Assembly (NCBI GenBank): GCA_963787255.1
Contig: CAWBCJ010000029.1
Location: 896,001 to 960,000 of the forward strand
From: Methanobacteriota archaeon
Lineage (GTDB): Archaea; Methanobacteriota; Methanobacteria; Methanobacteriales; Methanobacteriaceae
Direction of reading: 5' to 3'
DNA: 64,000 bases
Shown here one piece after another: positions 1,640 through 6,349 of this stretch; position 1 is the first letter of the stretch, and each line of letters begins with the position of its first letter. A model generated the notes under the pieces. It was not told where the DNA came from, did no database searches, and saw nothing but the letters and a program-made list of their open reading frames with translations. The translations under genes and the position numbers were made by a program.

Positions 1640-2893
1640 TTATTTAAATAAATCATTTAGTTCCGGGTGGATTTTATCTTTAATTCCAAGCTCATCCATG
1701 GTTTTTCCATAAGAATTATTAATTACTTTAAATTCTGCACGTACTATTCCTCTAAAAGCACCGTATCCCATGACTTTACCGTAATTTTCTGTTATAATTT
1801 CAATAATCTTACTGAAATCAATGATAAGTGTTTTTTCTCTTTCATCTAAAGGAATATCTTCAACATTTTCTCTTATTTTATCAAAATCTATTGCAGAATT
1901 GCTTTTCACATCAACATCTTTAAGGATGGTTTTGCAGTCTTCTAATGGTAAAAATCTTTTTATTAGACCTCTTGCGGGGGATACACCCATGATTTTACTT
2001 GCTCCAATGGACATTGCCAAAAATATGGATTCATAAACATCTAAAATTAAATTAGCCTTTTCTTCTGGAGATTCAGGTATTTGAACATTTTCAGGTAGTT
2101 TAGGGAATGAAATTGGAGGTCTAATAACTGGAATATTGCTACCTGGTTCTTCAACTTCTTCTGGAACTTCAAGCTCTTCATCAGACATTTCTGCTTCTAT
2201 TTCGAGTTCATCTTCTACAATTGAAGGTGTTATTTCTTCATTTTCAGCACTGATCTCATCTTCTGATTTAATTTCTAAAATTTCTGTAAGTTTTTCTTTG
2301 GCCTCTTCAGAATCCAGTGATTTGAATTCTTGTGATTCAATTATTTCATCTAATTTTTCAGTTCCCACTACTTTTTCAAATGCTTCGGAAATATCTTCAG
2401 TTTCGGCAATTCTTTCAACCACTTCTTCTATTTCTGCAGGTTCTAAATCTGATGATTCAATGAGTTTATCAATTTCAGACTTTTCAGTTGATACTTCTTC
2501 TTCAACTGTTTCTGTGAAAACCATATTTTTTGTAAGTTCCATTATATTTTGTGCGGCTCTTTTTGCTGAAACCATAACAAGTCCAACATTTGCTGATACT
2601 TCCATGAGCAAGATAAAATGAACATTACCTAGATGCAAAAATAAAGCCTTTCCTTCCTTTGATTCAACTAGAACTCGCTCTATTTCACCCTGGTCTGCAG
2701 AACTAAGTAATCTTTTAGAGGAACTGGTGATTACATATGCCATTGGTCCAAAAAGAGAAGTATCTGTCCCCCTTGACATGCTATGGCATATCACATTTCC
2801 GTTGCTATCGGATATTAAACCACTTTCTACGCCATCAATTCTATTTAAATCAATCAGTATGCTCATTAGTTGGTTTTCAGTGCTTGAGTCCAT
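1640..2893 (-). CDS. Roadblock/LC7 (MglB-like) domain protein with acidic linker and C-terminal helical domain
   Basis: N-terminal LNRIDGVESGLISDSNGNVI...IERVLVESKEGKALF...NVGLV Roadblock pattern; long E/D-rich middle region. Confidence 0.85.
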   Translation of the reverse strand: MDSSTENQLMSILIDLNRIDGVESGLISDSNGNVICHSMSRGTDTSLFGPMAYVITSSSKRLLSSADQGEIERVLVESKEGKALFLHLGNVHFILLMEVSANVGLVMVSAKRAAQNIMELTKNMVFTETVEEEVSTEKSEIDKLIESSDLEPAEIEEVVERIAETEDISEAFEKVVGTEKLDEIIESQEFKSLDSEEAKEKLTEILEIKSEDEISAENEEITPSIVEDELEIEAEMSDEELEVPEEVEEPGSNIPVIRPPISFPKLPENVQIPESPEEKANLILDVYESIFLAMSIGASKIMGVSPARGLIKRFLPLEDCKTILKDVDVKSNSAIDFDKIRENVEDIPLDEREKTLIIDFSKIIEIITENYGKVMGYGAFRGIVRAEFKVINNSYGKTMDELGIKDKIHPELNDLFK

Positions 2894-3097
2894 ATAACCA
2901 CTTGTATATTTGAAAGAAGTATATCCTATGTGTATGTAGAATGTTTATTAAAAAATTATCTCCAAAATACTATTGTTTTATGATATTTAAATTAATTACA
3001 ATATCATTTTAATGTTCTGAATTTAATTGGAAAATATTAAATAATAATGATTATTCAATTTCAAAAGAGTATTGTTTAGCTTCATTTTTTTTAAATC

Positions 3098-3150
3098 AAT
3101 GATATTGACATTCAAAAAAAAAATAAAATAAAAATAAAAAAAGAAAGAGA
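3098..3150 (-). terminator. Oligo-T terminator after the hydrogenase large subunit
   Basis: Long A-runs on the + strand (T-runs on the coding strand) directly after the stop at 3158. Confidence 0.5.
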
Positions 3151-3157
3151 TTATTCG

Positions 3158-4606
3158 TTACAATACATGCCGTTTAAGGAGTACACCTTCGCTGTCATGT
3201 ATATCTACAAGTAAAGGAGATTCTCCGTTTATCATGTGAGTAGCACATGAGAGACATGGATCATAAGCTCTTACAATCATTTCAAGCTGATTTTTAAGCC
3301 CTTCAGATACTTCTTCGCCTTTAATCATGGCCTTTGCAGTTTCTCTTACACCTATATCCATTGAAAGGTTGTTTTGACCTGTTGAAACTATGAGATTTGC
3401 GCGGTTTATGTAACCTGCAGCATCTGTTTCATAATCGTGAATCAGAATTCCTCTTGTAGCTTCAATCATTCCAACGCCTCTTCTTGTTTCGCTGGATCCT
3501 TTTGCTTCTTCCCGGGTCATGAGAGTTTCTGAAAGACCTTGCCTTAAATCTGTTCCAGTAATTGAACCATCTTCAAGAAGCTGTACAGACCTTTCAGCTG
3601 CAAACATCAACTCAATTAAACGGGCATAATGGTATAGTAGAGCATTTTGGGCAATTCCATACTTATCTTTGTATTCGCCGAATAATTGGGAAGCTTTTTC
3701 AGTTGGAATGTTCTGTGCGATGTTCAATCTTGCAAGAGGCCCAACTCTGTAATTTCCTTCAGGGAATCCAATCTGTTTCAGGTACGGGAATTTGAGATAA
3801 GACCATGGCTGAACCTTTTCTTCGATGTAGTCTAAGTAATCGCTTGCTTCGAATTCGTAAACCGAATTACCGCCTTTGTCAATGACTTTAACAGGTGCAT
3901 CATAAAATTCTATATTTCCATTATTGCTTAAAGCACCGAAATGAGATTCAACAGGGCCTAAAAGTTCTATTGCTTCACTGTACTGTTCAAATAATGGTTT
4001 AGCTACTTCAACGCCCTTTTCTATAAGTCCTACGGCATCTTTAGCTTGTGATAGTAACTTTGATCGTTCTTCTTCTGTAATTCCTTTGGATTGACCGCCA
4101 GGTATAGCAGTTACAGGGCTGATTGGTTTTCCTCCAACTACGCTTGTTATATACTGTCCAATTTTTCGAGTATCTATTGCCATTTTTGCAAGCGCTGGGT
4201 CTTTTTTAAGGATACCTACAACGTTTCTGAGTGCAGGATCTGATTCCGGACCCATTACAAGATCAGGCGCCCCTAGGAAATAGAAATGAAGTGAATGTGA
4301 ATGGATGTATTGGCCTAAAAGCATAAGTTCTCTTAATTTTTGGGCAGTTTCTGGGGGCTGTAATCCAAATACCTGATCTGTAGCCTTAGCAGAAGCTAAA
4401 TGGTGCGCTGTTTGACATATGCCACATATACGTGGGGTAATTCGCGGTGCTTCTTCTACAGCAGCTCCCTCTAGAAATTTTTCAAAACCTCTTATTTCCA
4501 TTACGTGAAAGTGAGCATCTGAAACACTTCCAGAGTCATCTAATTGAACTGTGATTTTTGCGTGTCCTTCAATTCTGGTTACAGGGCTTATTTCAATATT
4601 TTTCAT
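3158..4606 (-). CDS. Group 3 [NiFe] hydrogenase large subunit, MvhA-like paralog
   Basis: TRIEGH, L1 RICGIC, HSHSLH, L2 DPCLSCATH plus a cleavable C-terminal extension; ATG 4606 after GGTGA. Confidence 0.93.
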
Positions 4607-4621
4607 AAATATCACCTTTAT

Positions 4622-5533
4622 TTATTTCTTGACCAGTTGAGGGATCAATGAAACCTGTTTTTCCTCCATTATGGTACTTCCAATTACAAATCCGTATATA
4701 ACATGCCCTATGTCATAAATCTGTTTTTCAACATCTTTTTCAGGCATCTTGGAAAGGTGAGCAATTCTTTTGATTACTCCATTATATAGATCGTGGCTTG
4801 GTTCTCTTAAAACATCCAGTGAAGGTCCTCCACAGCCATGACAGGGAATTCCAGCATCAGTACAGAGTGCACCGCATCTTCCAAGGGTTACTGAGCCTAA
4901 ACAAACGTATCCCTGGCTTAAGAAGCACTGTTGAGAGTCAGGATTTCCTTCTACTCTTCTATGGATTTTATCGAATTCTACGTGATCCATCCATCTTTGA
5001 CAATCTGCACAAACACTCTTTTTGGGAACATTTGGAGCTTCACCATTAATTAAAGGCAATAATATGTCTCCGGTTAATCTTTCCTTTGGAGGACAGCCAG
5101 GAATATAATAATCTACTTCAGTAAAGTCTCCTGCGGGATGAACAATAGGTAGAAGTTTTGGAACAACTTCTGAAGGCACGTCAGCTGATTCTGTACTTGG
5201 ATTATCTGAATATGTACGTGATGTTACTTCTTCAGGGCTGTATAAATCTGCCATTCCAGTTATACCGCCGTAACATGCGCATGTTCCGTATGCAATCAAT
5301 GTTTTTGATTTTTTCCTTAATTCCTCTAATCTTTCCTTGTTTTCTTCATTTCGAACAGATCCAGATACTATTGCTATATCAACATCTTCAGGAATTACTT
5401 TAGCATCAACTAATACGGGGCCATAAACTATTTCGGATTTTTCCAGTATCTGTAATAACTCTTCGTGTAAATCAAGAATCGATATTTCACAACCTGCACA
5501 ACTTGCAAGTGCTTCCATTGCAATTTTAACCAT
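4622..5533 (-). CDS. [NiFe] hydrogenase small subunit, MvhG-like paralog
   Basis: [40 protein letters not shown] and PCHGC FeS motifs. Confidence 0.92.
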
Positions 5534-6087
5534 TATTTACCACCCCATTTTATAGTCAGGGTTTTAAGGCAAGCATTCGGACCAACATGGTTTATATCCA
5601 GTTTTCCTTTGATGCTCATAACTTCCTCAACTGCACCAACCATGTATCCGTATAAAAGATAACATAATGGTCCTTTTTGAGGTAATCCTGTCCTTCGCAA
5701 TGTCTGTCTTACAACACAATCCATAAATAATAGTTGCACTACTGTTTCATCGCCTTTTTCAATTGTATATCCTTCCTGATTGGTTGGTTTCCACATCTCA
5801 AAATAAAATTCAATTCCAAGTATTTCGCTCAGTTCTTTCATGGCCTTTTCCAGGTTGTCTGTTTTTTCCATGAGCTTACCAGCTTCGTGTCCCATTCTTT
5901 TCCCTGCTTGGTAAACAATAGCATTAGCTCCACGGCCGGAAACCTGTTCCAGTGCACTAGACATGGAACCTACAAATTTCATTAAAACATGCAGTGCTTC
6001 TTCGTAATCGTCGATGTCACCACCTGTTTCTTTAGGAATTAATTCAGGTTTAAAATCCCCTCTTACATCTTCCCTTTCAATTTCCAT
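5533..6087 (-). CDS. V4R (4-vinyl reductase / hydrocarbon-binding) domain protein
   Basis: YQAGKRMG helix, then DC...[16 protein letters not shown]...NAC, typical of V4R; stop overlaps the small-subunit start. Confidence 0.8.
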
Positions 6088-6097
6088 TACAAATCCC

Positions 6098-6349
6098 TCA
6101 TATTATTTTACTTAAAGCCTTATTCACTTTTCTGTCAATGTAAAGCCTTTTAGCCACATGTATATCGTCATGTTCTAGCGCTTGGGAAGGGCAAATTTCG
6201 TGGCATGATAGACAACCCATGCAATCTGTTTCATTCACTACTACAGTTTTTCCATGTTCTTTATCCAGTTCATATACATCGTTTGGACAGTCTTCAACGC
6301 AAGATCCGCATCCTACACATGCATCTTCGTCAACTTTTATTTTTACCAT
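6098..6349 (-). CDS. 2x[4Fe-4S] ferredoxin with basic C-terminal extension
   Basis: [12 protein letters not shown] and [15 protein letters not shown] 6349 after a GGGGG RBS. Confidence 0.92.

Follow-up and report, generated by a model that had tools for sequence, protein, structure and literature searches.

Results

The V4R-linked hydrogenase locus

We analysed a 64,000-nucleotide stretch of DNA from an archaeon of the family Methanobacteriaceae (assembly GCA_963787255.1, contig CAWBCJ010000029.1, positions 896,001 to 960,000), referred to here as the window. Four co-directional genes on its minus strand encode a ferredoxin, a protein with a predicted V4R/Bet3 fold, and the small and large subunits of a [NiFe] hydrogenase; this four-gene unit is termed the cassette. 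Open reading frames (ORFs) of the window were identified through Pfam and NCBIfam profile scans. The first gene (6098..6349) encodes a 2x[4Fe-4S] ferredoxin (Fer4, E 4.6e-14) of 83 amino acids when read from the ATG at 6349; the ORF stays open to 6379 (93 amino acids). The start at 6349 is preferred because GGGGGATTGAT, a purine-rich stretch containing GGGGG, lies just 5' of this ATG and because ferredoxin orthologues start with MVK or MIE, matching it. After 10 base pairs (bp) follows the gene for the 184-residue V4R/Bet3-fold protein (5533..6087), assigned from an AlphaFold2 model and Foldseek, and this gene overlaps by 1 bp, at 5533, with that of the 303-residue small subunit (4622..5533; Oxidored_q6, E 2e-30). 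The large-subunit gene (3158..4615; NiFeSe_Hases) encodes 482-485 residues and starts either at ATG 4606, 15 bp from the small-subunit gene, or at GTG 4615 (485 residues), 6 bp from it.

Directly past the large-subunit stop codon lies an oligo-T-rich stretch (3095..3157, minus strand) with runs of T5 to T10. Oligo-T tracts act as transcription terminators in archaea, and this stretch is likely the end of the four-gene transcript. The next gene, separated from the large-subunit gene by 264 bp (2893 to 3158), encodes a long Roadblock protein of 417 residues (1640..2893, minus strand), with an N-terminal Robl_LC7 domain, an acidic linker and an order-specific C-terminal domain; it is treated here as a non-core neighbour. 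Because of the oligo-T run after the large-subunit stop codon, the Roadblock gene perhaps has its own transcript, which fits a caveat in a preliminary description of this DNA. That description had reported four co-directional genes plus a Roadblock gene, with gaps of 10 bp, a 1-bp overlap, 15 bp and 264 bp, and the ORF coordinates agree with it. One soil metatranscriptome contained contigs that cover fragments of the V4R gene, of both hydrogenase-subunit genes, of the Roadblock gene and of two neighbouring genes, where DNA carry-over is possible; among these contigs, which come from a single dataset and cover a small share of the stretch, none bridged a gene junction by 31 letters, and they have no bearing on co-transcription.

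The residues expected of a working enzyme were present. The large subunit contains both Ni-Fe ligand motifs, RICGIC and DPCLSCATH, and carries a 25-residue C-terminal extension past the last His; its closest solved relatives are MvhA chains (5odc_F, E 1.7e-138). Twelve Cys columns were invariant across 10 cassette small subunits and the MvhG of the same genome, and are read as the ligands of three [4Fe-4S] clusters. All eight Cys of the ferredoxin were invariant among nine orthologues. Judged by these motifs, the catalytic pair is intact. The best NCBIfam matches were VhuA-like for the large and VhuG-like for the small subunit, at 454/800 and 260/450 bits, respectively; the canonical MvhA and MvhG also fell short (456 and 298 bits), and these models are non-discriminating.

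The cassette hydrogenase as a paralogue of Mvh

The host genome (2.47 Mb, 29 contigs) contains a complete mvhD-mvhG-mvhA-mvhB operon elsewhere (C29:56.7-60.7 kb); the window hydrogenase is therefore a paralogue of the canonical Mvh, as had been proposed. Identity between the two enzymes of this genome is 47% for the large subunit (against MvhA) and 35% for the small subunit (against MvhG). The genome also has three further kinds of large-subunit gene, by size one of Frh type and two smaller Eha/Ehb-like ones (named by eye). Of 41 related genomes, 38 have canonical MvhA, at 71-95% identity to that of the host genome, and a second MvhA copy (49-53% identical to the canonical one) was limited to the window's genus. 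The genome has three PF02662 (MvhD) hits, all of them outside the window locus, in keeping with the earlier statement that no mvhD lies there. Apart from the mvhD of the canonical operon, these MvhD/FlpD-domain hits lie at C29:187477-187845 and C29:697457-697798, one in a 146-residue frame and one within a 794-residue frame.

Fold and conserved residues of the V4R protein

Pfam V4R (PF02830, gathering cut-off 31 bits) did not match the window V4R protein, and its only Pfam match, to ATC_hydrolase (E 5.9e-5), was below the cut-off. Among 49 family members, 11 matched PF02830 (best E 4.5e-4) and 16 matched ATC_hydrolase (PF14196), in all cases below the cut-off. An AlphaFold2 model (49 sequences) reached a predicted local distance difference test score of 90.7 and a predicted TM-score of 0.80, and displays five helices over a four-stranded antiparallel sheet, the arrangement by which the V4R/Bet3 fold was recognised. 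When the model was searched with Foldseek, the best matches were the phenol-sensing domains of MopR, PoxR and DmpR (E 4e-6 to 1e-4; TM-score 0.52-0.58), with TRAPP Bet3/TPC6 chains from E 2.5e-5 up (TM-score 0.55-0.62), MJ1460 at E 2e-3, and YslB and CesD/BcsD chains lower; 35 PDB matches were obtained at E <= 1e-3. The model thus supports a V4R/Bet3 fold for the 184-residue protein, and the identity given in the preliminary description held, though without a Pfam V4R match.

Two Gly-x3-Gly pairs, in helices 2 and 5, are given as a hallmark of V4R and Bet3 by Podar et al. 2008 (PMC2253512). Both pairs, G62/G66 and G147/G151, are present in the window protein; G62, G66 and G147 are conserved in at least 90% of 49 sequences, and G151 is invariant in 16. 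Across the same 49 sequences, C124 and C142 never vary, C173 shows at least 90% conservation, and second V4R copies retain all three cysteines; H167 is conserved in the closer V4R relatives only. The zinc site of DmpR consists of Cys151, Glu172, Cys177 and Cys185 (PMC7264223). Because DmpR holds zinc with three Cys and a Glu in the same fold, the three V4R cysteines may, by analogy, be ligands of a structural metal and not of an iron-sulfur cluster.

Purely sequence-based searches were less informative. The V4R family profile found nothing below E 0.1 among the sequences of solved structures, and hhalign gave a probability of 0.2% against the genome's own helix-turn-helix-V4R protein (a single-sequence template). 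Atlas neighbours at 0.90-0.91 were the RdxA_C, ATC_hydrolase, TRAPP and V4R clusters, which were taken as leads only. In a complex prediction of small subunit, ferredoxin and V4R protein, the control scored too close, so that this result weighs neither for nor against binding.

Conservation and distribution of the cassette

Relatives of the 184-residue protein were collected from three sources. Named genome contigs yielded 394 relatives, of which the best 80 were fetched; the phylum that includes Methanocella was sampled with 301 genomes, 41 of which gave a match, and 25 of the 27 loci fetched carried the cassette; metagenome contigs searched with a bacterial-type profile yielded 262 relatives, the best 80 again being fetched. 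To be counted, a locus needed at least 400 bases of sequence on the upstream side of the V4R gene and at least 2900 on its downstream side. In all 143 loci with such flanks, the genes for ferredoxin (Fd), V4R-like protein (V4R), small subunit (S) and large subunit (L) stood side by side, in three different gene orders. The order Fd-V4R-S-L was seen in 67 of 67 Methanobacterium-type loci (58 clean, five with an extra ferredoxin copy and four with split frames), in 6/6 Methanocella loci and in 20/20 further loci of the same phylum. Five divergent archaeal loci showed V4R-V4R-S-Fd-L in four cases and Fd-V4R-S-L in one. All bacterial-type metagenome loci contained V4R, S, L and Fd (45/45), and 44 of the 45 also had a second V4R-like gene after the ferredoxin gene; a putative hydrogenase maturation protease (named by eye) follows in 24 of 36 such loci examined that were at least 9 kb long. 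The earlier claim that the V4R linkage is conserved is therefore upheld across several methanogen orders and bacterial-type contigs. Because the same four families stay together through three gene orders, a classical signature, we infer that the four genes encode one complex.

Further observations refine this picture. Bacterial-type enzymes probably carry two different V4R-fold subunits; the second V4R-like gene of these loci (L223-L299) encodes about 159 residues and is more divergent. The variant loci L155-L158 have the order V4R-V4R-small subunit-ferredoxin-large subunit, and the last residue of their large subunits (390-405 residues) is the His of DPCLSC(A/S)(S/T)H, which leaves no C-terminal extension for cleavage. 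A search of representative sequences revealed two fused polypeptides, P0114 (231 residues) and P0235 (246 residues), in which the V4R-like domain follows a ferredoxin; members of the P0235 cluster are named from Vulcanimicrobiota and Xenobiia metagenome-assembled genomes (MAGs). Longer fused V4R relatives (323-2000 residues) were also sought, and none was found. Open frames of about 500 residues around the V4R gene in high-GC genomes were considered as fusions and rejected, V4R and small subunit being in different frames. The V4R-like family is small, with 136 representatives at E <= 1e-3 among 1.84 billion; by source name, other members come from Methanomicrobiales, Methanoculleus, Desulfotalea, Omnitrophota, Altiarchaeales, Hydrothermarchaeota and one Heimdallarchaeota MAG.

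In the 143 loci, no marker matched between the four cassette genes, where the markers were window proteins, Roadblock and MinD and did not include MvhD or Hdr. Neither mvhD nor hdr is part of the four-gene unit, as read from fetched loci on which no search aimed at MvhD or Hdr was made. ORF clustering revealed no other recurrent family in the bacterial-type flanks. Among the relatives of the host genome, a V4R match was found in 20 of 22 genomes of the window's genus and in 0 of 18 others, and within the genus the V4R protein is 85-97% identical. When syntenic relatives were compared, the cassette appeared as a clean four-gene presence/absence difference at one chromosomal spot. It is an accessory gene set and, by comparative genomics, a well-defined one.

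Six Methanobacterium-type loci (L024, L031, L036, L094, L095 and L102, five of them in the counted set) have an extra ferredoxin gene about 400-800 bases upstream of the cassette ferredoxin. In one related genome (G005:C1:372599-372892), a second V4R-like copy is found some 500 bases away from the intact gene; it is 36% identical and interrupted by six stop codons.

Phylogeny of the large subunit

In a maximum-likelihood tree, 15 context-verified archaeal cassette large subunits fell on one side of a branch with support of 88 by ultrafast bootstrap and 85 by the Shimodaira-Hasegawa-like approximate likelihood-ratio test (SH-aLRT), a split recovered in 86% of 200 bootstrap trees; six database rows, assigned by their position in a first tree, fall with these 15. 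Canonical MvhA formed the neighbouring clade (91/83 in this archaeal tree), and the window large subunit was placed outside it, within the sister clade. When 10 bacterial-type sequences were added, the V4R-linked large subunits minus the five divergent variants formed one clade (SH-aLRT 91), with the MvhA clade adjoining it (SH-aLRT 91). By these trees, which have a single very long outgroup (the genome's own FrhA), few references from other hydrogenase groups and divergent variants on long branches, the cassette hydrogenase belongs to a lineage sister to the Mvh/Vhu (group 3c) enzymes. Because the branching order inside the V4R-linked clade follows taxonomy, its history fits old vertical descent with many losses; an old transfer is also possible.

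Roadblock genes beside the cassette

The preliminary description had counted the Roadblock gene as a possible member of the system. In the 417-residue protein, the Robl_LC7 match (30.2 bits; cut-off 23) covers residues 15-94 only. Its C-terminal domain was found in 36 of 41 related genomes, including all 14 of two sister families without the cassette, and had no detectable relative in non-Methanobacterium loci. In each of four cassette-less loci that were fetched, the long Roadblock gene stood directly next to the sortase gene, and the gene order from SepF through the long Roadblock was the same as in the window.

A second, short Roadblock gene lies in a block 9-14 kb upstream of the cassette (15736..20556), which by Pfam comprises this gene (15736-16155, minus strand), a DUF1611 P-loop protein, SepF (17335-17688, plus strand), a 382-residue protein with no Pfam match and two MinD-like ATPases in tandem (18959-20556, plus strand). 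From the short Roadblock to the start of the 382-residue gene, the block is syntenic in 4/4 cassette-less Methanobacteriales loci, all of which end inside that gene. The block looks like a cell-division or positioning module. Its short Roadblock protein shows 31-34% identity to the Methanocella-/Methanomicrobiales-type Roadblock proteins that abut the cassette and 45-53% to those of the variant cassettes, and the N-domain of the long Roadblock protein shows 26-36% identity to the same cassette-abutting proteins. By these comparisons, the Roadblock proteins adjoining the cassette in other orders are more closely related to the window's short Roadblock protein, and the long one is a separate paralogue, not their orthologue.

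In the Methanocella-/Methanomicrobiales-type loci with Fd-V4R-S-L order, a gene for a 115-residue Roadblock protein came next after the large subunit in 26/26 cases and was followed by a second Roadblock-containing gene; a MinD-like ATPase was found in 24 of these 26 loci (L143 and L148 excepted). In the three loci whose start and stop codons were read, the Roadblock gene overlaps the large-subunit gene by 7 nucleotides or follows it by 2-3 nucleotides. Roadblock or MinD genes are also near the cassette in divergent archaeal loci. Overall, a Roadblock gene was located within 4 kb of the V4R gene in 56/67 Methanobacterium-type, 6/6 Methanocella, 20/20 further and 2/5 divergent loci, and in only 4 of 45 bacterial-type loci. 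In 13 Methanomicrobiales-type genomes without the cassette, the two Roadblock genes (Robl1-Robl2) are kept at the same chromosomal place; 12 of these also show MinD and the flanking prepilin-peptidase and hisI genes, and the thirteenth locus ends at a contig end. Because cassette-less relatives keep their Roadblock genes in place and bacterial-type loci are mostly without one, we conclude from gene neighbourhoods that Roadblock is not a subunit of the hydrogenase; it is a resident of a conserved Roadblock/MinD/SepF chromosomal block beside the cassette. Membership of the window's Roadblock gene in the system is thus not supported as stated. The paralogy with Mvh, the conserved V4R linkage and the V4R fold are supported, and the earlier interpretation holds in part. 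In two archaeal phyla the cassette recurs within or next to a Roadblock/MinD block, and a role in signalling therefore stays under consideration.

Several of these neighbourhoods contain additional genes. At L146 (11307-13839) and the equivalent places in L137 and L151, the short Roadblock gene is followed by a gene for a 246-residue protein whose C-terminal part is a Roadblock domain, by genes for two proteins (354 and 237 residues) without Pfam match, and then by that for a MinD-like ATPase. The partner gene in L156 carries DUF2226/DUF4388; a literature search found no paper mentioning DUF2226. In the divergent locus L154, an ORF that by eye resembles a P-loop GTPase lies between two Roadblock genes.

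Discussion

Proposed function of the cassette and competing explanations

We propose that the cassette encodes a four-subunit soluble [NiFe] hydrogenase acting as an H2:acceptor oxidoreductase, in which a ferredoxin/V4R output module replaces MvhD-Hdr; we regard this proposal as having about an even chance of being correct. In such an enzyme, H2 would be split at the Ni-Fe site, and the electrons would pass through the three clusters of the small subunit to the pair of clusters in the ferredoxin. On this ferredoxin would sit the V4R-fold subunit, whose Cys3 metal site and ligand pocket would decide which physiological acceptor is used, be it a small hydrophobic molecule or a partner protein. 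Such an enzyme would be an H2:X oxidoreductase apart from heterodisulfide reductase and accessory to the catabolic Mvh. Several points weigh against this proposal. The unit contains no flavin, NAD(P) or substrate-specific domain, and no acceptor could be pinpointed. Reduction of a low-potential ferredoxin with H2 is endergonic without bifurcation or an ion gradient, which makes a plain H2:ferredoxin uptake role unlikely. In PMC2253512 and PMC7264223, V4R domains of the canonical kind act in sensing or ligand binding and are not known as redox subunits; the Cys-rich site binds zinc in DmpR, so that by analogy the three cysteines may be merely structural. The physical association of the four proteins is deduced from gene order and fusions only, and the short Roadblock gene next downstream in 26 Methanocella-/Methanomicrobiales-type loci would fit a signalling output.

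We consider unlikely, but deserving of serious weight, the explanation offered in the preliminary description, namely that the locus encodes an H2/redox sensor, in which the hydrogenase would report H2 via the ferredoxin to the V4R protein and from there to Roadblock/MinD-type switches or a regulator. The large subunits of regulatory hydrogenases are without a C-terminal extension, and those of the divergent variants likewise stop at the His of DPCxxCxxH; the window large subunit, however, retains its extension, and its nearest solved relatives are catalytic group 3 enzymes. A Roadblock gene lies near the V4R gene in most archaeal loci, as close as the 7-nucleotide overlap or 2-3-nucleotide gaps of the three loci read, and a MinD-like gene was detected in 25 of 27 archaeal loci (not L143, L148). 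However, Roadblock and MinD are independent of the cassette, being kept in 13 Methanomicrobiales-type loci and in 14/14 Methanobacteriales genomes without it; only 4/45 bacterial-type loci have a Roadblock gene within 4 kb; and the Roadblock gene adjacent in the window is another paralogue than that in other orders. Nor does the unit come with a conserved output domain, such as a DNA-binding or kinase domain. A sensory role is typical of V4R domains (PMC2253512), and the V4R protein CorR is reported as the CO-sensing half of CorQR in Thermococcus onnurineus (cited in PMC6557876). A more far-reaching version, which we put forward as a long shot, is that the V4R/Bet3 subunit, after receiving electrons or a ligand from the hydrogenase and ferredoxin, would act with adjacent Roadblock proteins as a TRAPP-like switch on the MinD/SepF block, an H2 gauge by which soil and wetland methanogens would match cell division or organisation to their energy supply.

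We also weighed, as a rather improbable explanation, an alternative Hdr-coupled Mvh isoenzyme in which the V4R protein and ferredoxin would replace MvhD and dock on HdrABC or another bifurcating flavoenzyme. The catalytic subunits are closest to MvhAG, and the V4R gene occupies the mvhD position, directly upstream of the small-subunit gene; the V4R fold, however, is unrelated to MvhD, and a complete mvhDGAB coexists in the same genome. Moreover, the cassette is dispensable in otherwise syntenic close relatives, and no hdr or flavoprotein gene was linked to it in any gene order, in fetched loci where no search was aimed at Hdr or MvhD. For Methanocella conradii, 'Mvh1' and 'Mvh2' are counted as canonical hydrogenases (PMC6046458); either may be the V4R cassette. 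That the cassette is a decaying or silent duplicate, functionless at present, seems highly improbable to us. Frame breaks occur in 4/67 Methanobacterium-type loci, and one genome has a broken second V4R copy; against this, the frames are otherwise intact with all metal ligands conserved over several phyla, the V4R protein is 85-97% identical within the genus, and the soil metatranscriptome contigs over parts of the Roadblock gene and three cassette genes argue weakly in the same direction, DNA carry-over being possible.

Comparison with known systems

The closest known system is Mvh/Vhu (MvhADG with HdrABC, group 3c), which shares with the cassette the nearest large and small subunits, the same Ni-Fe motifs and the twelve small-subunit Cys; both are cytoplasmic, without a membrane subunit. 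The cassette, however, has no MvhD, polyferredoxin or hdr linkage, and has its own ferredoxin and V4R subunit instead; it also falls in a separate clade and is an accessory, not a universal, gene set. The regulatory HoxBC/HupUV enzymes (group 2b) are likewise soluble hydrogenase dimers joined to a sensory-type domain, and like them the divergent variant cassettes have large subunits without a C-terminal extension. They belong, however, to another hydrogenase group, and the cassette always comes with a ferredoxin and, in the window, with the 25-residue extension; it has no linked histidine kinase or response regulator of the kind that goes with HoxBC/HupUV, and no kinase was found among the ORFs of window positions 1-12000. 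TRAPP, in which Bet3 and longin/Roadblock-like subunits act on Rab GTPases, resembles the archaeal loci in its Bet3-like fold and in the Roadblock genes that adjoin the cassettes, but these genes persist without the cassette, and no small GTPase gene is adjacent in the window, where no GTPase search was made.

With MopR/PoxR/DmpR and the stand-alone MJ1460, the cassette protein shares the fold, both Gly-x3-Gly pairs and a Cys-rich site where DmpR binds zinc. It differs in falling below the Pfam V4R cut-off, in its Cys spacing, in having no AAA+ or DNA-binding domain, and in being genetically tied to a hydrogenase and a ferredoxin. A literature search found no paper linking a V4R protein to a hydrogenase as a subunit, and none on the arrangement itself, in accord with the preliminary description; a search for Roadblock together with hydrogenase in archaea returned nothing relevant by title or abstract. 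The nearest precedents are two. CorR, which with the LysR-type CorQ makes up CorQR of the euryarchaeon Thermococcus onnurineus, is a stand-alone V4R protein beside a carbon monoxide dehydrogenase-hydrogenase cluster with a proposed role in gas sensing (cited in PMC6557876). Compared by description only, CorR differs in pairing with a DNA-binding partner and is not reported as an enzyme subunit; no LysR-type gene was found at the cassette locus. The other precedent is a Synechocystis cluster in which genes for two V4R-like proteins are conserved beside those for the ferredoxins Fed4 and Fed5 (PMC4284462); again compared by description only, it differs in having no hydrogenase, in its ferredoxin types and in its photosynthetic context.

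The catalogue of methanogen hydrogenases is regarded as well established (Frh, Mvh/Vhu, Eha/Ehb/Ech, Vht and Hmd). The V4R-linked hydrogenase represents a further coherent, uncharacterised lineage with its own subunit set. It occurs in Methanocella, in the majority of the Methanobacterium genomes that were sampled, in some Methanomicrobiales-type genomes and on bacterial-type contigs. Genome annotations list the hydrogenase simply as 'F420-non-reducing hydrogenase', next to a 'hydrocarbon binding protein (contains V4R domain)'. If the enzyme proposal is correct, metabolic models of methanogens miss an H2-dependent reaction; if the sensor explanation is correct, the system would be the first H2 sensor known in archaea. 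In either case, the widespread and poorly understood V4R fold gains a defined redox partner, which makes its function testable by biochemical means. Chadwick et al. describe MvhA-type hydrogenases in small subclades of ANME-1 and ANME-2c (PMC9012536).

Other features of the window

The cassette and the long Roadblock gene are flanked by genes for a sortase-domain protein (6622-7230; PF04203, E 1.9e-16), co-directional with the long Roadblock gene, and for a small cupredoxin with a signal-like N-terminus (800-1153). On one side, the neighbours encode the sortase, an MscS-type channel, a tRNase Z-like metallo-beta-lactamase protein and a quinolinate phosphoribosyltransferase; on the other side, they encode a small membrane protein, the cupredoxin and an RFC-like AAA ATPase. 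Between 11185 and 13660 lie genes for two PAS-only proteins, the second of which (12578-13660) has an almost perfect internal repeat, about 60 residues long. In cassette-less relatives, the markers were silent between the acidic-protein and ZPR1 genes, which there are no more than about 20 nucleotides apart, and the PAS-protein genes seem to be absent from the corresponding place. Finally, positions 10307-10786 encode a 159-residue protein with no Pfam match and an acidic N-terminal repeat, which is 72-79% identical in the sister families.

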